A DNA stretch of 61,943 nt, the filler included, from Rhabdomonas costata (lineage: Eukaryota), in NCBI GenBank assembly GCA_019059605.1. It is 25 parts of 25 records of this genome, joined end to end, with 100 filler letters (N's around TTAATTAATTAA, not from the genome) between each part and the next. Parts side by side here need not be neighbours in the genome. Positions count along the whole stretch, not along the records: positions 27,312 to 29,694 come from JAHMHO010003696.1; 24 more parts are not named here. The stretch is one strand, 5' to 3'. Every line of letters starts with the position of its first letter. Position 1 is the first letter of the stretch. Shown here in pieces: positions 19,661 to 39,619 of this stretch. The notes beneath the pieces are model-generated. The model ran no database searches and was not told where the DNA came from. It saw only the letters and a program-made list of their open reading frames with translations. Both the position numbers and the translations under genes were made by a program.

Positions 19661-20426
19661 CGGGTGGGGTGGGCTCCCCAGGAACTCCCAGCTTGTGCTG
19701 GCTCGCAGTGAGCTCACTCCACAGCCAGCACAAGCTGGGAGTTCCTGGGGAGCCAACCCCCCCNNNNNNNNNNNNNNNNNNNNNNNNNNNNNNNNNNNNN
19801 NNNNNNNTTAATTAATTAANNNNNNNNNNNNNNNNNNNNNNNNNNNNNNNNNNNNNNNNNNNNGGTGTGTTCCCACAGTGAGTCTCGGTGCATCAAAAAC
19901 CGCCGCACCACGCTTCTTTGGGAACACACGGCAAACCGGGGGACAATGCAGCAATGTCGAGTGCTCTGTTCAACGGAGCGGGAGGCATCCAGAGGCAGAG
20001 AGAAGGGCATTGCTAAGCAAAAAATTCATGGCAGAAGACGAAAAAAACCCACTCTAGTGATGGTTGTAACACTCAACAGACATCGGGTCAAATACCACAG
20101 CAAACGAATACCTGAGGGGGCACGCCAGTTCACCCAAGCCGGTTTAGAAGAATTTTGCAGCTTTCGCTGCTCCAGCGCTCACGGAACAAGTGACTTACAA
20201 CAGCAGTTGTGAACATAGCTGTTCTCGGAAATTTTCATCCACCAAGCAGTGCAGTTCTTCCAGGACAGTGTGCACTTAAATCCTGTGAAAAATGGTACCC
20301 AGTTCCAGCCACGGACGGCACATAACGTAGTTACGGAAATAGAAATCGGTGAGAAAAGAAGAAAAAGGTCCGATTGCTGGTTACCGCTGGTTGCGGGAAA
20401 AATTCTTTGCGCACAGGAAAAATCAC

Positions 20427-21901
20427 CTGGATGATGTCGCTGCCGTTCTTCAGCACGATGTGCTCAGGGGTGTTGAACTGCTGGTCCAGGGCGTCCGCGC
20501 CGGCCTGGAGCTGCACCCCAGGAGTGATCACCAGGAGCTCCGGGTGGGCCGGGGTCAGCGACCGCTGCGCGATGAACCCGATCACAAAGTCCTGCATAGG
20601 TGCAAAAGACAGAACGAAGAAGAAAACCCGTGCGTTCGTCTGAGCACAGGAAGTGGAGCATGAGCAGAAAGAGACCGCCTTGGGCGGGTTCTCTTCTACC
20701 TTCTTCGCATTCTCGAGTCCCCTGCGTTGTTGCAGTTTTTGCAAGTGAAAATAGAGAACGCCATGGGCGGGTTCCCCCCTTGCTTGTTTGTGCTTATGCA
20801 CACCATGGTTTCATGGTGGACGCGTTGATTAAGGGCCGGGGGTGAGACGACCCAAGCGAGCTTAAAGAATAAAAGAGAAGCCCCCTTGAAAAACAAAGAC
20901 ACTTCGAACTGTGCACATTCACTGCGACTGGGCCATGGTTTTTCGGGCGATGTACACATTTGTTGTACCCGTTCTGTATCCTATCACCGGGCCCAATAAC
21001 AAGTCCAATCATTCAGTTGCTGTTTAGTTTCGGTCCCCTGGATTTTCCAGGATGTCTTGGGCCGCGGAGCGCAGCGACGATCCTAGGTGAAACACGTATC
21101 CCTCGGAGGATGTTATTTGGTCTCGCAGGGGGTCGTTATAAACGCATAACGCCGTTACACCTACAACGGCAATATACACGCGTTATATCACTCTTTCTCA
21201 CAAGGCTTTTACACCGCACAAGAAAAAGCAGAACAAGAGCAAAGCTTCGTCAGGGTACCAAACCTGCACGATACAAACGCAGGAATGTCACATTGGAAGA
21301 AAAAGCAGTTCGGGCTTCTGCTTTGCTCATTGTCCTCCAAAGATCTTGCACTGTGCTTCCAGCACCCCAGCACGGCAGCCCGCACCGACACAAGGGCGAG
21401 GAGAAACTCATCAATTTGGAGACCACACTCAGTCCCCCAACGCGTATGTCTTCACGGAAAGGCGTGAAATCAACATGCTAGGCGATATGCAATTCACCAC
21501 AGGTATAAGGGGGAGCACGTCTTGCTGGTGCCACAGGGTCTTTTCGATGCACAGCAGACTGCGTGGTCGGTTTCCTGGCCTTACTCTCGGCCGGTTGCGA
21601 TGTCCCTCGGCGGCACTTTCGTATCCTTTGCTCCGCTGGAGGGTACCTTGCACTTGAGAGCCTCGGCGACGGTGCGGTCGGTGTAGTTCCCGGTGGCCAG
21701 GTTGCCCTTGCTGCTCATTTCCGCCAGCAGAAGCAGTGCGACCTCCCGCCCGGAGCCCGCGGCGGCCTGCCGCAGCGCCGTGACAATTCCCGGCCCAGGC
21801 ACCAGGTGGGCGTTCACGATGTCTGCCCACCGCGCGATCCGGAACACCCCGCTGGTGAACTGCAGCTGCACGGTGTTGCCGATGTCCGCGAACTTCCGGT
21901 C
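20427..21901 (-). CDS. URA3: Orotidine 5'-phosphate decarboxylase (eukaryotic type, stand-alone or UMP synthase domain), partial; exons 21901-21647, 20591-20427
   Basis: Motifs [50 protein letters not shown] and [10 protein letters not shown]; phase-0 GT-AG intron. Confidence 0.95.
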
Positions 21902-24900: not shown

Positions 24901-27470
24901 CCACCAGGTGTCAAAACGCAATGCTGTTTCGCTTCGATGCTGTCCGGGAAAAGGTTTTTGTCTCATTTAGTATGTGATTTTTTAACAAAACTTGTGGTAC
25001 ATCGCCAAGGTGGTTGGGTGTTCGAAGAATGGACGATGTTTGGCGAGGTGGTATAAGCAGTGTGAAGTCTTGTGTGGTGCTGCCTTCACCATTCACTGTT
25101 TCCATTGTTTTCCTGTTTTCAGTGGTACACACGCGCGTCGCGAGCTTGCCGGTAACCAGCAGTATCAGTGGGGCGTTAGGCTCGAGAGGTGAGCACCCTG
25201 GCTGCCAACGAGCGTTCTGTTTCGTTTGGAGTAGTGTATCACCTCCTTCAATTTATCAGCAAACTGGCCATCAGCGAGAGCACCACTTTCTGCCAACACT
25301 GCGTGCCAGTGAGTCTGCAGCGGTGACCAGCAAACAGTCAGGCAATATAAAGCCAGAGCGCGAATGTGCCCAACACACTCACTCAGCAGAACTGGAACGC
25401 GCGTCAAATCTTGGCCCCACTTCACCTCGTGCAAAATTTTCTAGCATTCGTGACTATGGACAATAAAATGCCGCATGTTCTTGCGTATGCTATGTAGGTT
25501 TTCAGTGGACATAAAATGGTGTCGCCAAATTATTTAGGCAGCTCGAGTGGTGGGAATGGGAGGGGGATACCAAAACCAAAAAATGGATACCGTCCTTTTC
25601 TGTGAGACCCACAGGAAAGGTCAGGTGTCTTTGCTGTGCCGCGTTGTCAACTTGATGGGTACGGTTTCCCTTGTCAAGCCTGTGTGAGGAGCTCGAAAAT
25701 CGTCTTTTGTTTAACGTGCTGTGTAACTAGTGGTTCCAAATATCATCGCCGCCGTTTGGAGTGAGCATCCTTTCTTGCGGACGGCTGCACTCCAATGGTT
25801 TGCATTTATGCCATTTGTCCAATATGTGTGTGTATTCCTGGAATGGAATTCCGATGGTTCGATTTCCTGTCTACATATCACTGCAGGAGGCCGCCCAGAA
25901 GCAGCTGGTGTATGGATCGACTGCCCTCAGCCACAGATGTGGCGACGGTGAAAGCGACAAAGTGTGTGCGGATGCGAGATGTACTTCAGGCTTGTTTGAG
26001 GACCAAAACCATTTATTGTGGACGCATACTCGAAGTTTCTTCGGGGCCAGCACCGATCGATAGTGGTGGATAGGACGACCCCAATTTGCCCCGATACTTG
26101 GACTGTCAATCCTTCCCGTTCCGCTGAGAGTCCGGATTTTGTGCATGGTGGTTTAGTGTTTCGCCTTTGTTGCTTTGCGTTTGATATACTACTGCTATTT
26201 ACTTTGCTTAGTTCTTCTTCAAAATTGCTATGGTTGGTATATTGAGAGGAACTTGGCACTTAGACGAACCACTCCGTATTCCTAAAGATGCAACTCTGCA
26301 GTGCGGAAACGTCGAATACTTCAAATTGGGAAATTCCATTTTACTTTTCGATTTCTTTTTTGGAAAAGAAATCCAAAAGTTACGAAAGGCTTTTTTGAAG
26401 CGGTCAGTTATACTACCTCGATAGGACAGATGCCGGCGCGGAGCCCCTAACCCGGCTCTACTCAGTCCCTCAGGAGGTTTATTGGTATAATTTCACTTTA
26501 GCAACATCTCTGACTCCAAAGTTTACAACGCAACTGAGTAACTGACTTTTTCTCCCGCTGGTCGTCTTGGTGTGTGCAAGATATCCCTCTGCTCTTCAAC
26601 GAAGCTGCGCAGGGGATACGTTGATACCGTGGTCTCAATTTTGGTCTCTCTTTGCGGTGCATTTCGCAAATATGGCATAAAAACGGTGCTCCTTCTTTTG
26701 ACGGTCTTCGTGATCTCAGGTGTTACCACATTCCTGTTGATCACCGTGCTGGCTTCCAATACTGTACAGCCCCCGGACGTACATGTTGCGCTTATCCTCG
26801 CTGTGGGCATTAGTGGCTCCCATTGCACCACAACGCACAACGTGCGATTCGTTGTCAAGCGTGTTTTCCCTCTGAGGTGCAGGGAGAGCGCTACGAAGCT
26901 CGCAATACCAATTGCTTACAGTGAGCCCCCCGTTCACAGACACCCATACCGTTTTTGCTCGTGTCCCACATCTGTGCCTTGTCTTTTCCGGATGCGTTCC
27001 CGCCATACCTTCCTTCCGACGGGGTCGCAGCGCAGCCCTGCGCAAGTACAACCTTTCTCATTGTGGTGTTTCATTTTTTTTGTCTTTGCAGCGGTGGTCT
27101 CTCTTCCAACCTCACCGGTCTTCTAGTCCTTGAAGGTCTCTTGCTGCCCACTCGAAAACCATGTTGGAGTGCTTTTCAAGCAGCTCCATCGGGCATAAAC
27201 GGAGAAACGGANNNNNNNNNNNNNNNNNNNNNNNNNNNNNNNNNNNNNNNNNNNNTTAATTAATTAANNNNNNNNNNNNNNNNNNNNNNNNNNNNNNNNN
27301 NNNNNNNNNNNTGTTTTTGTTCTTCCTACCGTGTGTCCATTTTTACCGACTTTTTTTTCAAAGGTTTTTGTTTATTTCTACCGCTTTTTCACCACCTGTT
27401 TCCATGGGGAAGAAATTCTTTTGAAAAGAGAACCCCCAAGCATCCAAGCATCTATACACATACGCTTCAG

Positions 27471-27576
27471 AGGTTCGCGCTGCTGGGAGTGCTGCAAAAC
27501 TGCAGCCCGGCGCCCGTCCGGGAGGACACCGTCAGGCAGATCTTCCAGGAGATGGACACCCACGGCACGGGCCGAG
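27471..27576 (+). CDS. Probable exon encoding the start of an EF-hand
   Basis: CAG acceptor, reading ...EDTVRQIFQEMDTHGTGR (helix plus DxxGxG loop), then a GTTTGT donor. Confidence 0.5.
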
Positions 27577-29043
27577 GTTTGTTTGTGCAAGTGCGGGTAC
27601 GAATTTCGGTCCTCTGCGAGCGCAGTCCCGCGGCCATTTCCACTATACTCTGTTCAAGCTCGCAACCCCCAAACGCATAGCGCTTTTCTGTTCTTTATCT
27701 TTACTTATCTTTTTTTTTTAATGTCCTGTCTCTGACTCCGGGAGTCGCCCTCCCAAGTTTCACTGAATAGTGAATCCTATTGTCCCTACACTGTGGTATC
27801 AGCTTCCGCGAGTCTCAGATTGTAGGCAACCGCACCCGTGGAGCTGGTGAAGCTGCCACTGTGCCATTTCAAACATAATCGAAACCACGACTGTTCCGCC
27901 GAGATCGGCCGCTGGGCTCAGCAGAGCAAATGTACCTAATGGCTTTTGCTGGGAAACCCGTTCGTGGGTGTCCCCAGCACCGTGCTCGGTTTCCATCTTC
28001 AGTGTTCGGCTTGCATCCAAGCATCCAAACACATACGCTTCAGAGGTTCGTACGCCCACAGATGTTTGTTCTGCACATTTGGCGGTGTGCTTTTCAGTGA
28101 CGTACCGGCAGTTTCTGAACTTTGTCGGCAACGCGTTTATGCGGACGTACGTTTTGACGTGTCCTTGGACGCCTCCGGAAGCCTCCTCTCCTTCCGCGGA
28201 GGCCTCCACGGCGGCCAACTTCCGCCAGTCCGGTGCTGTGGCGGCACGTCTCGTAGAGGGCACGCCGCCCCCCCTTCCCGTGCCTGTGCCACCTGTGCCC
28301 CCGGGAGCAACGTAGCGCTCAGGGACAGAGAGAGCGTGCGTTATTTGTCCCGTTTGTACAACTGCGACACGCTACCCAAACTTCGAACCGGACGGTGCCA
28401 GCGTTCGTTGGGCAGATAAAGAACTATCTTCCTTATTCTTTGGGAAGCGAGAGCTGGAGCGCGACCGATCCCAAGCCTATCACTCAGTCATATCCCCCAA
28501 CCCATCGCACGCACGTTTTCTTCCAAGATGTTCGACAACTTCTGACAATGAAACAGCACGTCCTGCACATGGCTGAGCCCGACACCGTTTCAAAGTGACC
28601 ACAATATTGGCTGTGCGAAACTTGGATCGGTTGTGCCCGGTTGTGCTGGATTGTGGTGCCCGAACAGTTGACTGTTCTGGCTGCTGAAGGGGCGTTCAAC
28701 CTCTTGGCAAAAACCAAAACATCCTGAACGTTACTCCCCGCCCTCTGCCGGAAAAACAAGAACAGCCGTGCGGAGCACCGGGTGGGAACAATTCTGGTGA
28801 CGACACATCCGGATGTGTTTGCTTGTGTTTGCTCCTAAGTCCATCGGTAATAAGGACATGCGGAAATTTTGGCCCCGAGAAACCGCACGAAATCCGCACA
28901 CAAAGGAGCACGGCACAACGCGTAGGAACAGCGCGTCATGCGCCATAGCCCACGGAAACGGCAGCGCCCAGCATCCCCGCCACCACTAAACACGCAGACC
29001 ATCCCACCATGGTGGGTGGTGGCATGCTCCCTTTTTTTTTGGT

Positions 29044-29694
29044 ACGGTCTTCGTAATGTCTAACCGGCCGACAAAATGCCCGGTTCATGAAAAAGAAATG
29101 TTAGCCTTGGTGGATTCTCTAGAGGCATGGCGTCATTACCTACTGGATGCCGATTCACCCCCTTGGCGTGGATTGGATCCCACGTCAATCCCAGGCACCA
29201 CCCCAGACGAGGTCGCGCGTTGGATTCGCACGGCTCGAGCATCAACCGAGGAAGAGGCCGAAGACGATGCGTTTGCCTCCGCTATCCAGACATCAATGGT
29301 TCCCGTACCAAGTCTTAACGCCTTGACTCACATTCAAGTCTCATTAAATGCAGTTCATACCGATGCATCCGTCGGTTCACACCGACGTGAAATGACACCG
29401 CCCACCCCCCTCATCGTTTTAAGCAACAGCATTGCTGTTTTTCCTTGCCTACTGGTTTGCTTCCACCGCCTCTAACGGAGATTTCAGCAAACCCCGTGTC
29501 AGTGGACAACTGCAAAAGCACATTGCCCCCTCGGTTAACCTACCGCATTCCATTGCCCTCTTTTCAGCCAGAAGAGGATGTCATGTTAACACCCCCCATT
29601 TTCCATGCCATCTGTCAAAATTTCTCCTTTGTTCCAGAAGTTGACCTTTTCGCTTCTGCGACCCACCATCAGCTTTCATCCTACTTTTCCCCTG
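29044..29694 (+). mobile_element. Decayed retrotransposon fragment: Ty3/gypsy-type RNase H motif followed by a Dam-like N6-adenine methyltransferase N-terminus; truncated by the contig end
   Basis: YGLRNV*PAD/(frameshift)KCPVHEKEMLALVDSLEAWRHYLL at ~29044-29145. EEDVMLTPPIFHAICQNFSFVPEVDLFASATHHQLSSYFSP at 29571-29694 lies in a different frame. Confidence 0.75.
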
Positions 29695-30305
29695 NNNNNN
29701 NNNNNNNNNNNNNNNNNNNNNNNNNNNNNNNNNNNNNNTTAATTAATTAANNNNNNNNNNNNNNNNNNNNNNNNNNNNNNNNNNNNNNNNNNNNGGTTGG
29801 GGGGGTGCTGATGGCGTCACATGAAGAAACATGTTGCATATAAAATTATTTACCAAGATTCCGGGGGTGTTTTTTTTCGTCCCAGTGTCACCTCTCATCA
29901 ATTTTGTAAATTTAAAGAAGGGTCCTCTCAGTGCCCTTGTGAAGATTTTGCATGAAGTAAAAGTGGGTGACGACCAGCTGATACCTCAAGAGCTTTTGTT
30001 GACTCAATCGTTGCACGCCGTTTTATTGATCACATTATGATTACTGTTGTATAATTAATTAGTGCTCTTTCATTTTAATTCATAGTAATGGCCTCGTGCT
30101 CTGGACTTTTCCCATTTTGATACACTTTTTTCAATCAAATACACGATCAGACATGGCATGAACTTTCTCGTGAAACTACTGTCGTGGATTTTTTCCACCA
30201 CACAATGCGCATTTCCATTATTTTCTCTTTTCCTTACATAGTAGACATCCATGTGCGCCGTCTCTCCACCAACGGTCCATACTCTGTATTTTCTAGCGCA
30301 TACGT

Positions 30306-30961
30306 CACAGTACATGATCTCCACAGCGCTGCGACATCTCTGAACTCAAATATTTGACAGGAACTGCTTTACACAAAACAACTATCCTATCTGGTATTGT
30401 GACAAAGAATTAACACTACCATTTTTATCGCTTGTTCAGTTACATTCAGCACATCTTCCATATCTTGATCGCTGGTAACGACATGACGTCCACTGACACT
30501 GAATCACACTTTCGTACAGGTATTTTTAAGTTTTGAAAGTGTGTCATTTTCAGGTGAGGGTACGCCTTTCCTCTCTGGCAGATATCGCAAGTCAGAACGT
30601 GTGCCCTCACTTTCACTTTATGTTCCTGAAGTTAAACATCCTCTTCAGCATACCTGCTGTTCTGGTCTCTCCCCAATTCCACGCGGCAGGTTAATCGTGA
30701 TACATCGAAATCACCTCTGCCTCTCTAGTAGTGGCACTGCAATGTTTCTATCATCCAAAATCCTACCATGGTGCCACTGCTCTTTGTCACTGAGTCGAAG
30801 TACTATGAGCCTCTGGGTCGGTATAACCAATAGTCCTCACACCAGTCTTCCGGACGTGTCAATTTAAATGGTGCGCACCGCGGAAGCGCAGCCACAGTAC
30901 ATGACCTCCACAGCGCTACCACATCTCTGAACTCCGATCTTTGACATGGAACTGCTTTACA
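30306..30961. repeat. Diverged ~68-bp direct repeat (30306-30373 and 30893-30961) inside a decayed minus-strand reading frame
   Basis: cacagtacatgaYctccacagcgctRcSacatctctgaactc...tttgaca(t)ggaactgctttaca is present twice. Confidence 0.85.
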
Positions 30962-33900
30962 GCTTGATATTTTCTTGCAAAGCCTGTCTCAACTGCACTC
31001 TTCCACGCCATGCCACTCTGATCGAACACCTCAAATGCAAAGCTTGAGTAGTTAGTCAGCAGTAACACTTGCCGACACTTGATCAGCATGCGCACACTGA
31101 CACACCCACTACACATCCACACGTCCACAATACACAAATCTCCACCATGCATAAAGCCTCATCTGAGATGAAAAACTCGTCTGGGTATCCTCTGCTTCTT
31201 CAGCAACTCCTGAAAAAGAGACAACAAAGAAACGGGTCATTCTCAAGAAAAAATAACACCGACTGCTCCGCCACAACCTCTATGGCTCAACTCTGAAGCT
31301 CCTTCTGCTGCAAAGCCCCACTCTATGGATCCGCAACTTCTCAATCCAAACTTCTCAAGGTTCCATTTACATTGCCTTTTGTTGCACAATACCATCAACA
31401 CATTAACCGGAAATGTACGAAAATAATGTCTGCAACATTGGCGGGTGCGTCGGCTCCCCATTGATTTGAAAAAAGAAGCTCCCTTTATATAAAACACCCC
31501 ACGCACTGTGGATTCCTCCAAAAGATGAAAGCAAGGTGCGTGCGTTCTTTTTGGGGTAACTAGCGCAGCAACACTAGAGCTTTATTTCTGCAAATCTTAG
31601 CAGCACCAGCGGTATTAAACTCCACAAGCAAAGCAGTGGAATCCAGTAAGCGATTGCTTTACAGCATGGCGCGGCCTCAACCAATTCACACGCAGTAAAA
31701 TTCCTTTGCAACGGTTTATGCATCTTAGACGTGCGCAAATATAGGCAGCATGTGGCAGGCCTTTCCATAAACACTATGCATAACCCCACCGCGTCTTCAT
31801 GACTGAAAACCGGATTAGAGTGCTCTCGTGGAAGCTTCCTTAGTGTCCCCTCCCCAAAAGCGTCTTCTATGACACCATCCGACTGCATAGGACATAACCG
31901 GGAACAATATGGACTTTCCGGGCCCGTCCAATCATCCTAACGGCCGACCCAAGCTTAGATATGAGCTGCTGATCAGCCGCTGGTGGGACATCGTTGGGTC
32001 GCGGCCCAACGCGCTGGCAGGCAAACGCCCCCCCTCGGGAAAGAGATTTCCAGATCCAGTATAAAGGGCGGATTTGGAAACACTTCGGGTTTTCGGCTTT
32101 CTTGCGAGGCCCCAAAGGCCAACACGCTTTGGAACACGCGGTCTGGTCACGGCGCGGCGGGGCCAACAAACACANNNNNNNNNNNNNNNNNNNNNNNNNN
32201 NNNNNNNNNNNNNNNNNNTTAATTAATTAANNNNNNNNNNNNNNNNNNNNNNNNNNNNNNNNNNNNNNNNNNNNGTTTTTTTGGTCCCCTTTTGAGTTTG
32301 CAGGGGTTAGGTTGCGATGCACGGTTCCCGAAGTTAAAATAGAAGCTTTTTGGGCTGCGTAGGGGTACGTGGCGAAGGGGGGGGGGATAAATGCACTTAT
32401 GCCAATACCGGATAACTATATTCCGCAGCGGAGACAGTAGCGGACAGTTTGTTTTGCATATGATCTGAGAATCGCACCTTTCTGGGTTTCGGAAGCTTTG
32501 CAATGAATTGGAAAAGCCTGCATGACAATTTTGTTGTTGTTTAGCATTCGAGTTCTGGTGCAGAGCCTGGGTGTTAATGAATGCGAGAAACTGCACAGGA
32601 TTGAAAAAGAAAAGAAAAGCGGAAAAGTTCGGTTTTCCACCGCACACAGTTTGGTTTTTTCATTGTGATTTGAGCACATACAGTCGCATCCCAGTCACCG
32701 TCACACACACAGCCTATTATTAGTTTGAATGCGTGGCTTCATTATCTGTGGTAACGTTGCTCTAAGAGATCTTTAAGCTCTGTGAAGCTTTGTCTCGCTT
32801 ACGGAATGTTGGCTGATTTACAGAGACGGGAAGGTATCCCTTTTTCCATTCAAAACGTTATTATGAAGAGTCTCATTGACTCTTCTCAAAGACCTGGCGA
32901 AGTCTGCATGTATTTGTCTTTCCTGTTTGCTTTCTTCAGATTAAACCGGTCTTAGCCCCCAAGACGAAGAAAGACGCCATTTGCCGAGCATGCCGTGGAC
33001 CCAAGTGCTGGGGACTTTGCCTTTGTCGCCATCCCTTCGCACTTGTGTGCGTTTGAGGGGGAGAAAGGGGAGTGCTTTGTTCTTTTTTTTTTGTTTCTTT
33101 GCCTTTTTTCTTTTGTTGAGGTTTGTTTGTTTGTTTGTTTGGATGCGGGCTTTGCGCTTGCAGTGGATCAGGTGGGCGTTTGCCAGCCGCTCAGCCACGT
33201 GATGTAAAGTTAGAAATATATACACCTGTTTGTCTTGTAAGTGTTTGCGGATTTAGTTTTTTCCTTCGGTGGGTTTTCCGGGGGGGGTCTTCTTTTTTTG
33301 TCGTTACCCTTTCATCGCTGACCCCGTGCCGTTTCAATTGTCTTGCCTCCTCCTCTCGGGGCTCGTTGTGCAGTGCCTTTTTCGTGCCGACTCGAAAGTG
33401 CACACAGAGAGATGCAGGAGCAACCCCGCCACAGCGGTGGCGGTGGGAGCTCGCTGCTGGCGACACATGTGGGCTCTTCAAAGGGCTCGCCTTTTCGTGG
33501 TTGCTGTGTTAGGTATTGCCTTGTGCCATGAAGCTCCCTTCTTGTTGTCCTTTGTTGATGAGGTGTAAATTTGTAAGATGTGTGACGGTGGAGGCTTTTT
33601 TATCCGAGGGTTTTGGATTTTTGCTTCGATGCTGTGAGCAATGGTCCCTGGGACGCAGGTTTTCCCCCAGCCCTCTCTCTCCCTAGGACGTTGTATCGGA
33701 AAAGTGTTCAACGGAAATGCTGCGGTCTCCCATTCCGGCGATCTTCCTCTCGCGCCTGACTTTTTCTCTCTCTCGTCTTCTCGCGAGCGTACCTTGTGTA
33801 GCTCGCCGGCTCATCCCGGTTTGGTGCCGCGCCAGTTGTCAGTCGACCCCTCATCCCTTACTGCGTTTTTCTTTTCTTTTCCTTTTGTTATCCTCCCGAC

Positions 33901-34404: not shown

Positions 34405-35398
34405 CTGTTGCAAAGCAAAATATAAATGAAGGGACCGAAGCGCAGGATAATGTTGAGAAGCGGATCACCTCCAGCCCGAGTCGAATAGTGCGAATTTCCT
34501 TATCTTAGTATTATGGGGGCAGGAATGATGGTTTGCTGTGCCTGAAACTCTGCTCAGCGCCCCTTTGCTATTTTTCCCTCGTGGTATCCTTCTAGTACAA
34601 TGGAGATGAACGCTGGCAAGCGCAGCACCTCTTCCGCGCAGCCCCACACAAAACANNNNNNNNNNNNNNNNNNNNNNNNNNNNNNNNNNNNNNNNNNNNT
34701 TAATTAATTAANNNNNNNNNNNNNNNNNNNNNNNNNNNNNNNNNNNNNNNNNNNNGTGATAAACTGAGCATTAGATGAGGGCTACCGGGGTACCCCCCTC
34801 CGGCCTGTAGGCCCCCAGGGGCTTGCCCATAGGTCGGCTCATGGATCATGGTATTTCAGTGTACCCCCACACCCGGAACCTCTCAAGACCTCACGGCCCA
34901 GCCACGGGAGGGTTGTACAATGGTGCCGCCGTGGGGCTGTGTTCGCTCGACTAGATAGGGCCTGGAGAATGGACTCCTCGCATTCGTAGGGCTATGGCTT
35001 ATGGGCTGCCTGTGGACATACCTTATCGTGATATAGCTGTGGCCGAGGGGCCGAAAAAATGCCGAGGTGGGACGAAAGGGGAGGGGGGTTGCATGTGGTG
35101 CGAGCCCCTCCGAAGCTAGATTCCCCTAGGGGCCCGGTACGGAACCCCCAGCACGTGTTTGATTCAGGTGTGATATGTGCTTACCACCGATCAACGGGGT
35201 AAGTATTTTAATTTGTGAATTCCCGTACGACTCGGGCTATTAGGCTGAGCGATTCTTTTGCACCAAATGATTTCTTTGTGACCAGAAGAGTGATGTTGTC
35301 GTTTTCCATAAACTCTCTTCTCGTTCGGTTTTGCCGATGCCTTTGTCAACTGATTGACTTCTTGGATTCTTAAGTGATTCAGTGCATGCAGTGAACAT

Positions 35399-37137
35399 AT
35401 GAATGTACTGTGTAAAACTTCACGTTCAGGGGACTCGGGCTTTCTGCGGCCCCTGATCCTGCGGCTGTGCTCCACCCTGGTCCAGGGTAAGCTTCCCGTC
35501 AAAGAAGTGGGGAAGGAGAAGCCCGTCGGGGAGAATATGCCTCCAGTCCTTCTTTTGCCCTTCCCGGAAAGGCCCGGGTGGAGTATTCTCTTCCAGGTGG
35601 ATGTGGACTACTCCCTTCGTGATCCGCAAGTCCTTCGCCAAGTGTTCCGCGTGTGGGACGTCGCTCCAGAGAAAGCTATCCAAGACTCCTGGCTACCCTC
35701 CCTCATTCCCGCGGTGCATCGCGTTTACAGCAAGGGACGGATTGAGTGCTGCCGCAAGCCCCCAAAGTCCGTTTCTGGGATTCTCATTCCCTTGGAATTC
35801 CCTGAGCTCTCGTCCATCGGGAGAGCTGAGGATGCCGTGTTCCGGAGCAACGCAGCCGAGGGTTTGTTCGCCGAAAACCTGAGCTTTTTCCACACTTTCG
35901 AGGAGAAGCTAGTTTGGTTTTTGTCCTCCCCAGAGATTCGCCAGTCTGGGCTCATCAGCGTTCCATTTCGGGTCTCGCAAGAAGTGAGGATTGCGATGTC
36001 GTGTCCCCGCTCTGTGGTGGTGAAGGGCCGCTCGGGGACAGGGAAGACCACTGCATTGCTGTTCCGAATGTTTGAAAACCTCTCGCAGCCCTTCCTCGGG
36101 GAAACCCGGCAGGTGTTTGTGACGATGTCTCCTTTCCTTTGCCACCGGATCCGTGAGCTCTTTGGGCATTTCCAGCGATGGTTTGCTTCTGAAGAAATGG
36201 CAGCCTGGGAGGGCGCCACAGCCAGCTCCCGCGTGAACGTGACAATGCGGTCCATATTTGAAGACGACGAAGAGGCGAGCCCTGCGGTGGCCAACAAGCT
36301 CAGCGAAATCCCATTGGATCAATTCCCGTTGTTTCTGACAAGCGCTGACCTGATGAAGAGCATCGACGCGTGTTTTTCGGATTCCTTCTTTGCTCGTGTA
36401 GCTTCGGGTCAATATGAGGACCCTGAACGTGCCCACGAAGGGGGGAAAGATATGAATCTCCGGTTTGCTAACGGCTTCGGCGCGGAGTCCAAAAAGCCTG
36501 GTGAGCAGAGATATTCTACCTCAAAGGTGGATTTCCCTCTGTTTCGGAGCAAGTACTGGACAAAGTTTTCTGTGGAGCTGACCTCAAGGATGAACGTCGC
36601 CGTTGCGTATGCCCAGATCATGACGGTTATCAAAGGCAACAGTCGAAAAGTCATGGACCGCCAGGAATATGAAGCGCTGAACTCCAAGAAGGCGTCTTGC
36701 GTCTCCGAGCCTGGGCTAGTGTACGACCTTTTTGAAAGGTACGAAACGGAGAAGCGAATGAACCGTGATTACGATGATCAGGACATTGCGCGTCACGTTC
36801 AGAATCGCCTGAAGCACTTCCCTCAAAAGGCTCCCCGGCTCAGTCGAATCTACGTGGATGAGGCCCAGGATCTCTCCCCATTGCAAATCAAGGTGCTGCT
36901 GATGCTTTGCAGTGATCCAGACGGGCTGTTCTTTTGCGGAGACTGCGCTCAGGCTGTTTCCTGGGGTGCGTGCTTCAGCTTCGACCATTTCGCAAGGCTT
37001 ATTTTTGAGTATTACGTTGAGAAGCCGGAGGACAAGGGGATCGCCGAGGTTTCGAAGCCGGTCACGTACAGCGTATCTCACGAGAAGGTTCATCGCCTTC
37101 AGTACAAAGGAATCGGGCGCTCATCCAAAAAGGTTGG
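35399..37137 (+). CDS. TRANK1/LBA1-like UvrD-type (SF1) helicase, 3'-truncated, no introns in the visible span
   Basis: ORF of about 580 codons with VVKGRSGTGKTT, RQVFVTMSPFLC, IMTVIKG, VYDLFERY..K....DYD..D, IYVDEAQDLS and GLFFCGDCAQAVS. The true start codon is uncertain. Confidence 0.88.
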
Positions 37138-38345: not shown

Positions 38346-39619
38346 TCACGTTCCAAGGGGCATCACTCTTCCATGAGTAATGTGCCCCACTGAACTCAGG
38401 CACTCCCCTGTGGCAGTGTCGAAGGCATAGAGCTGCTCAAAGCGCCCGCTGGGATCCGCCATGGGGCTGCAGTTCTCAATCACAGCGGCATTAATCGCGG
38501 CCTCGCTAGAAAACCGGCGCGAGCTCAGCCGGGCCAGTCCGACAAAAGCGTCCGCCAGAGCTTGAGCTACCCGCACTGCCTCACTGGTGTGAGCCAAGCT
38601 GTGCCCTAAACTCCATTCGAAGGCGCTCTTCTCAGGGTGAAACTGTGTCCCCAGGAAGGGCAACGTGCGGCCCTCGACTGCAGACACGAACTCCCGTCCC
38701 TTGCGGTCGAGGTTGGTGGCGAGCACGGTGAAGGTGTTGCGCAGGGCTGCGCTGGAGCGGAAGGATGCCGGCGCAGTCCCGCTGGAGTGGAAATTTGCCG
38801 TCAGCGGTTGAGACTGGACGGCCTTGAAGAGATCCTCCGGAAATAGAGAGAACATCGCGCTGACCCTCGCGTCGGCGGTGAGATTCAAAGGGAGGGCAAT
38901 GCTACGCGACACAGATGAAATCACAAAAAGTGAGGGCGAAGGTGGAGCTAATATTCCCTCACATCTTAGGCAACTGAACCAATCATAATAAACACCGCGC
39001 CCCCCCACCTTTACAGATCAACATCAGTATGCGATTAAAATGAAGGGTACTCCAGTTGAGCCGATGGACAAGAAAGTGTGGCCCCTGCACCTGCTCTCGT
39101 TCGCTCAGGGTATGCAGAATCCTCCACATCGCTCCTATCGAAGTTCATGAGCTCCGAGTCAACGGGCATATTTTTTGCCGTATGTATTGTGGCCATGAGG
39201 GAATTAGTTGCCAACAGGGAAATAGTGACAAAGTAAAGGTAAAAACCCAGAGTAGCGCTGCGCTACTTAGAGCCTTACACGTCAAGTCTTACACGCAAGA
39301 CTGGAAGAGGAATAGGGAAGAACCCCCAATGGTGCCCTCCCTGGGTTTGTCTCAAGATTTGGAAAGCGTAAAGCCTTTACACAGGCACACTTAAATACGC
39401 AACTTCTGTATAAGAAAAAAAGCTCAAGAATCGAACACACTCTTCGGCATCGAAGCATTTCGAGCACCGGACGTCCCAGGAGCCCGCCGCGGCAACCAAC
39501 ATCAGCTCAAACCCCAGGCACGTCCCCCACAGGGGGAAAACCTCCCCTTCTGCATTGGCCCGCACAGCAAGCTTGAAGATCTCCCACACGCGCCACACCA
39601 ACCGCAATCCCACCACCCC
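38346..39619 (-). CDS. GGH: Gamma-glutamyl hydrolase (peptidase C26), 5'-partial; exons ~39619-39441, 38901-38346
   Basis: FPLWGTCLGFE (catalytic Cys), LTANFH and GTQFHPEKSAFEW (catalytic His-Glu). A phase-2 GT-AG intron gives FDAED|IALPL. Confidence 0.95.

Follow-up and report, generated by a model that had tools for sequence, protein, structure and literature searches.

DIRS1-like elements, reportedly treated by Piednoel and colleagues in 2011 and by Goodwin and Poulter, are said to be tyrosine-recombinase elements that carry an RH-MT module in the pol frame. A preprint of May 2026 (Fernandez-Moreno et al.; bioRxiv 10.64898/2026.05.21.726589) reports, in its accessible text, 10,030 eukaryotic DAM proteins, which are located mostly in retrotransposons, and presents the 'first identification' of DAM domains in non-DIRS LTR elements, named DAM-LTRs. 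The same accessible text describes at least four transfers of DAM from DIRS into Ty3/gypsy elements and five DAM-LTR lineages, namely two green-algal/ochrophyte lineages, an ichthyosporean lineage, and those of Pyropia and Euglena. Further statements in it concern a conserved Asn-Pro-Pro pocket in eukaryotic DAM, the enrichment of DAM-LTR insertions in 6mA, the lack of a 6mA gain when DAM domains were expressed in E. coli, and a Chloro-Ochrophyta clade with DAM located between RT and integrase. According to the same source, it was in DIRS elements that the DLFAS...NPPW domain first became known. In some further papers, as far as their accessible portions go, the methyltransferase domain is mentioned only in DIRS or other contexts.

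We compared with these systems a locus in a window of 61,943 bases, the window being the whole stretch of DNA that was analyzed. It is cut by 24 identical joiners (N44-TTAATTAATTAA-N44) into 25 contigs of 2379-2385 nt each, evidently unplaced ones, which run in descending size order. Since the window consists of concatenated contigs, adjoining contigs are not physical neighbours, and any feature spanning a joiner is a concatenation artefact. One of the contigs (27312-29694, 2383 nt), termed here the relic contig, contains near its 3' end an RNase H island and a DAM island, and we regard it as probably holding the dead, eroded remnant of one Ty3/gypsy-type DAM-LTR copy. The features of this contig, and the joiner that follows it, are:

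27312..29079, no strand: contig part upstream of the RNase H island, without detectable RT, protease or N-terminal half of RNase H.
29080..29145, + strand: Ty3/gypsy-type RNase H island of 22 aa, PVHEKEMLALVDSLEAWRHYLL (Pfam RT_RNaseH, BLASTP, tblastn).
29146..29555, + strand: spacer of 410 nt with no significant homology, which holds a frame change and a stop at 29473-29475.
29556..29693, + strand: N-terminal 46 aa of a Dam-like (DAM) domain, PSFQPEEDVML...VDLFASATHHQLSSYFSP (phmmer, tblastn, tblastx).
29695..29794, no strand: artificial, non-genomic joiner N44-TTAATTAATTAA-N44, 1 of the 24 identical joiners.

In a DNA self-comparison, the relic contig had no repeat in common with the other 24 contigs of the window. 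A 38-nt direct repeat of 95% identity (27440-27477 and 28013-28050, 573 nt apart) lies upstream of the relic. Two other contigs contain fragments of an OMP decarboxylase (20334-20810, - strand, E 4.7e-8) and of a class-I glutamine amidotransferase (38349-39017, - strand, E 1.9e-4), which look like exon-sized bits of a eukaryotic genome. An unbroken 586-aa frame with a UvrD-helicase domain (35378-37135, + strand, Pfam E 6e-10) was also present, and its closest clusters in the Protein Atlas are all bacterial UvrD-helicase; this contig may represent a bacterial contaminant or a transferred gene among otherwise eukaryote-like contigs.

The initial annotation of this DNA had placed a Ty3/gypsy RNase H motif and the N-terminal part of a Dam-like methyltransferase about 430 nt apart on the same strand of the relic contig. 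Both motifs were found at that place and both exceed chance, the distance from WRHYLL of the first to EDVML of the second being 429 nt. A Pfam scan of all 58 ORFs of at least 30 aa in the relic contig gave RT_RNaseH as the sole family match of note. This match covers residues 27-53 of P0001 (27 residues, profile positions 44-70 of 105) with an E-value of 3.2e-4 and a score of 21.3 bits, which is below the cut-off of 24.8. In pairwise BLASTP comparisons with metagenomic gypsy pols, the island matched P0003 (E 5e-13) and P0004 (E 8e-12), and by alignment count it agrees with P0003 at 20 of its 22 residues and with P0051, a pol that carries DAM, at 19. The same island was found by tblastn with aa 1145-1170 of the L004 ORF (E 3.6e-6). 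The assignment to the gypsy-type RNase H in the initial annotation agrees with these matches, and relatives reach E-values down to 1e-36 with RT_RNaseH.

The RNase H island spans the catalytic-Glu motif to WRHYLL, and the rest of the domain is absent. BLAST alignments had offered a continuation of RNase H in frame beyond WRHYLL with a 6-aa deletion. We rejected this candidate using a profile derived from the RNase H C-terminal halves of nine relatives, against which the residues after WRHYLL scored -1.0, with 474 of 2000 shuffles scoring as high or higher. The RNase H thus ends at WRHYLL, in line with the initial annotation.

In the second island, the starts of EDVML and DLFAS are at 29574 and 29643, respectively, and the DAM frame is open to the contig end. 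A phmmer search with the DLFAS stretch against 1.84 billion representatives returned 42 proteins at E<=1e-3. The top match, P0005, was rejected as a homologue and left out, being a translated satellite (53 aa) with a score made up of 55 weak repeats; the 41 genuine matches (E 3e-11 to 1e-3) align to query residues about 44-101. Using tblastn, the DAM fragment showed 61% identity to aa 917-962 of L008 and 59% to aa 2012-2057 of L004, and its identity to P0051 is 51%. A scan of metagenome contigs yielded 28 related loci, and all 28 were matched by the fragment in tblastx. Twelve columns of the family are invariant or nearly so within the 46 residues, and by our own reading the window peptide keeps 12 out of 12. 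Judged from these sequence comparisons, the DLFAS stretch is a true homologue of the family rather than a chance motif, as had been proposed.

The motif NPPx (mostly NPPW) is located 40-44 residues after DLFA in 21 of the 41 matches, and N71-P72-P73-W74 is conserved in alignment A2, from which L014 and L024 were omitted with stops within their DAM stretches. In the window, NPPW would be expected 28 residues, or about 84 nt, past the Y at 29682, and this position is beyond the contig end, in agreement with the initial annotation. Searches with the window protein P0002 gave no match to Pfam Dam PF05869 at E<=10 and no usable match in the Protein Atlas, and a word-based search for longer proteins produced 31 candidates, none of them at E<=1.

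The two islands share a strand but not a reading frame, and the stop at 29473-29475 lies in the RNase H frame; together with the end of RNase H at WRHYLL, these features bear out the earlier description of the copy as decayed. The integrase expected between the islands is absent from the spacer. Homology of the pre-DAM linker to the post-integrase linker of P0051, P0006 or P0007 was considered and rejected as not significant, all eight linker-only BLASTP comparisons giving E>=0.02. The sole lead in the spacer is the stretch 29254-29409, to which residues 2-42 of P0006 show weak similarity (E 0.044). Upstream of the RNase H island, tblastn with the full pols P0051 and P0033 and with the L004 ORF returned nothing at E<1, and no traces of RT, protease or integrase were detected in the relic contig by Pfam on the 58 ORFs or by tblastn. 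RT and rve integrase in the order PR-RT-RH-INT are found in P0051, P0033, L002 and L004, but not in the relic contig. Since RT and integrase are absent from the relic contig, the window copy is a fragment and not a complete Ty3/gypsy member, and it is itself non-functional.

The domain order of the element was assessed in its relatives. Among the 41 phmmer matches analyzed with Pfam, 8 have an SH3_Tf2-1 integrase domain upstream of the match. The order in P0033 (1124 aa) is RVT_1 - RT_RNaseH - Integrase_H2C2 - rve - SH3 - DAM. P0051 (1763 aa, E 3.9e-50), the sole protein returned by a profile search for longer proteins, has the order PR-RT-RH-H2C2-rve-SH3, followed by a linker of ~270 aa and by DAM at residues 1615-1763. 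In 14 of the 28 related metagenomic loci, DAM is preceded on its own strand by integrase or SH3; the remaining 14 have too little upstream sequence or, in the case of L027, no match. Single open frames join integrase/SH3 to DAM in L004 (2237 aa), L008 (1075 aa), L010 (754 aa) and L016 (658 aa), and the frame of L004 comprises PR-RT-RH-H2C2-rve-SH3-DAM. Wherever a relative extends far enough upstream, DAM is located behind the integrase SH3 and 1.7-2.6 kb downstream of the RNase H motif. The expectation of the initial annotation that the methylase directly follows RNase H, as in DIRS, is not supported by this order.

The broader proposal made there was an LTR-retrotransposon lineage with its own methylase. 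It holds for the relatives, where gypsy RT-RH, rve integrase and DLFAS...NPP are found in one element (L004, P0051 and P0033), and it is thus right in kind; the window copy is a relic without RT, integrase and catalytic motif. The relatives constitute an existing Ty3/gypsy-type lineage that carries its own Dam-like domain. Separately, the metagenomic protein P0021 (429 aa) consists of a 5'-nucleotidase region (NT5C, E 1e-4) and a DAM N-terminal fragment with a frameshifted tail, and a chimeric gene call spanning an insertion may explain it.

Co-occurrence of the two motifs in other copies, which the initial annotation had named as a check, was observed in L002, L004, L008 and L022. These are the loci with sufficient upstream sequence, and each of them matches both window islands on one strand. 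P0051 matches both islands as well, and within the L004 frame they correspond to residues 1145-1170 and 2012-2057. The separation of the islands is 1734-2605 nt in the four loci versus 405 nt in the window, and the 0.4-kb spacing would result from loss of the integrase from the relic. We infer that both islands derive from a single copy that underwent internal deletions. The intact polyprotein would have had the order protease - RT - RNase H - integrase (H2C2 zinc finger, rve core, SH3) - linker - Dam-like N6-adenine methyltransferase. Deletion would have removed RT, the remainder of RNase H and all of the integrase (about 1.3-2.2 kb), leaving two collinear islands (RNase H, 22 aa; methyltransferase, its first 46 aa) in a contig that stops before the catalytic NPPW.

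An alternative explanation is that the islands are unrelated pieces placed side by side, whether by the decay of two copies, by nested insertion or by a short-read assembly chimera. It would account for the absence of homology in the 410-nt spacer and of any other pol remnant in the contig, the islands being linked by strand, order and family alone. DAM-related sequence is present in 2 of the 25 window contigs and the family looks abundant in small contigs, which raises the chance that fragments become neighbours, and the 123-nt terminal redundancy of L020, described below, shows that such repeats mis-assemble. However, the islands share their strand and their element family and have the order seen in intact pols, and P0051, L004 and L008 each match both of them. 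An unrelated origin is accordingly considered unlikely, and the derivation from a single eroded DAM-LTR copy is preferred.

The occurrence of the DLFAS...NPPW domain in DIRS elements raises the possibility that the relic belongs to an ordinary DIRS-like element (RT-RH-MT plus tyrosine recombinase) with an RNase H that is merely gypsy-like. One of the 41 phmmer matches, P0045, does have a DIRS-style RNase H end (ADWLSR) located 36 aa before DLFAS; however, it is among the weakest of the matches (E 8.6e-4), and the RNase H island has its matches in Pfam RT_RNaseH and in gypsy pols with H2C2/rve integrases. The tyrosine recombinase domain (Phage_integrase) was detected in 0 of the 58 ORFs of the relic contig, 0 of the 45 ORFs of the neighbouring contig, and 0 of the 121 ORFs (all of at least 110 aa) of the 28 related loci. 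Both features expected of DIRS, a tyrosine recombinase ORF and a DIRS-type RNase H directly followed by MT, are therefore missing, and a DIRS-like identity, which the initial annotation had listed as a refuting outcome, appears very improbable.

DAM-related sequence was also identified on the unlinked contig 29795-32174, which has the following features:

31382..31885, - strand: decayed DAM domain of another subfamily, with the NPP motif lost (tblastn with P0043, tblastx with L001).
30408..30794, - strand: integrase zinc-finger and core-start remnants in three frames (tblastn with P0051).

The second DAM was matched by residues 21-134 of P0043 in tblastn (E 2e-10) and by three collinear tblastx pieces to the DAM of L001. 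The integrase remnants correspond to residues 968-1101 of P0051 in four tblastn pieces with a summed E-value of 5e-17; tblastn is the sole evidence for them, as Pfam on the 45 ORFs of the contig did not detect an integrase in the broken ORFs. They are located ~0.6 kb downstream of DAM. Intact relatives have the opposite order, and this contig, with DAM upstream of the integrase, is a point against the canonical layout assumed for the single DAM-LTR copy. The reversed order may reflect tandem or nested copies, a variant architecture, or misassembly. Direct repeats of 54 nt (30306-30359 and 30893-30946, 89% identity) flank the integrase piece.

A genuine variant architecture, RT-RH-DAM-INT, with DAM between RNase H and integrase, would cover both contigs with one hypothesis, since the relic contig has RNase H and then DAM 0.4 kb on, and contig 29795-32174 has DAM and then integrase ~0.6 kb on. 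The P0006 N-terminus weakly resembles 29254-29409, upstream of DAM (E 0.044), and the accessible text of the preprint describes a clade that has DAM between RT and integrase (bioRxiv 10.64898/2026.05.21.726589). In contrast, RNase H is found beside DAM in 0 of the 14 informative loci, and integrase or SH3 occupies this place in 14 of 14. The closest relatives, P0007 and P0051 for the relic contig and L001 for the second contig, have DAM following integrase or SH3. The RNase H of the relic is a 22-aa stump and not a domain end abutting DAM, and both window copies are full of stops and frameshifts. In L020, which apparently has this DAM-to-INT order too, positions 1-123 and 2099-2221 form a 123-nt terminal redundancy with 100% identity, and the INT-DAM-INT layout of this locus is therefore a circular or tandem assembly of a ~2.1-kb unit. 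Taken with this evidence, the variant architecture is improbable, and an eroded copy of the canonical order remains the preferred reading of the relic contig.

LTR-like repeats were not found in the two window contigs or in L002, L003, L004, L007, L008 and L010, all of which are too short for both ends. Because no LTR was found, the term 'LTR element' refers here to the pol architecture only. A conserved ORF of up to 588 aa that belongs to no Pfam family was observed in L004 (6747-7841), L003 (1279-3042) and L007 (1056-2075). It begins 36-129 nt past the stop of the pol-DAM frame in these three loci, which leaves no space for an LTR between them, and in L007 a pre-RT-like stretch is located after the conserved ORF.

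The fold of the domain was modelled on the relative L008, not on the window fragment. The L008 model (built on 24 sequences, pLDDT 89.7) has a class-I SAM methyltransferase fold. Foldseek gave DIMT1/KsgA and PCIF1 as the best matches, with an E-value of 6e-5 for DIMT1 and KsgA and an overall range of 6e-5 to 3e-4. In a VIA-align comparison with 48,161 chains, PCIF1 had a Z-score of 11.0 (rmsd 3.0 over 138 residues), RNA adenine methylases about 9, T4 Dam and EcoDam 8.1, and M.TaqI 7.6. At the sequence level, Pfam Dam PF05869 was matched at E<=0.01 by 5 of the 41 phmmer matches and by 14 of 24 relatives, all below the gathering score, which weighs against a DAM-LTR assignment; the first relative, the only one with a given score, reached 18.9 bits versus a gathering score of 28.1. 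A profile of the DAM alignment compared with PDB sequences returned nothing relevant, the best match being a DUF4827 protein (E 0.047).

Because the model has the class-I fold with N6-adenine methyltransferases as its best structural matches, the relatives' domain is assigned to the amino-methyltransferases of the N6-adenine kind, with which the sequence evidence is consistent, though weak. DLFAS is plausibly the SAM-binding part, as it is located at the model's first strand-loop. In intact elements, the relatives, the fold model and the accessible text of the preprint suggest that the C-terminal class-I SAM methyltransferase would place N6-methyladenine on nucleic acid of the element itself. 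This mark may in turn associate the element with transcriptionally permissive chromatin that is marked by 6mA. The absence of a 6mA gain in E. coli, as stated in the accessible text (bioRxiv 10.64898/2026.05.21.726589), is a point against this explanation. Since PCIF1 and the rRNA adenine methylases are closest in structure, T4 Dam and EcoDam score lower, and 6mA was not gained in E. coli, the domain could instead act on RNA (e.g. by marking the element's own transcript) or on the RNA:DNA replication intermediate and not be a DNA methylase, a possibility to which we give a small chance.

A retrotransposon equipped with an adenine methyltransferase of its own may mark itself as 'active chromatin', and such elements are a lead on the exploitation of host epigenetics by mobile elements. 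The class was deduced correctly in the initial annotation from 70 residues of a dead copy. The novelty that was implied for the lineage does not stand, as DAM-LTRs are described in the accessible text of the preprint (bioRxiv 10.64898/2026.05.21.726589). With the class in print and the copy non-functional, the value of the locus is limited to one more genome that hosted such elements; in addition, the nearest intact relatives were shown to carry the methylase after the integrase.

Compared with known enzymes, the relatives' domain has the cap-specific adenosine-N6 methyltransferase PCIF1/CAPAM and the rRNA adenine methyltransferases KsgA/DIMT1 as its best structural neighbours; these act on RNA and have a sequence identity of 8-16% to it. 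With the prokaryotic and phage Dam (PF05869), T4 Dam and EcoDam, the relatives have in common the class-I SAM fold and the NPP[WYF] motif, whereas the eukaryotic domain, according to the accessible text of the preprint (10.64898/2026.05.21.726589), lacks both the first catalytic subdomain and a portion of the target-recognition region. DIRS1-like elements share the DLFAS...NPPW methyltransferase-like domain. They differ in that the RNase H of the window is of the gypsy type (EKE...WRHYLL), and in that the relatives encode an rve integrase without a tyrosine recombinase, with the domain following the integrase and not RNase H. The closest known system is that of the DAM-LTRs, which, as far as the accessible description goes, share a Ty3/gypsy-type RT-RH, a DDE integrase and a DIRS-derived Dam-like domain with the NPP pocket, include many orphan or degenerate copies, and in some lineages have a conventional Ty3/gypsy layout without a chromodomain. 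Of these features the window copy, a relic with 22 and 46 aa remaining, keeps the RNase H and DAM islands only, on one strand, whereas the relatives L004, L008, L010, L016, P0033 and P0051 combine gypsy RT/RH, integrase and DAM in one element.
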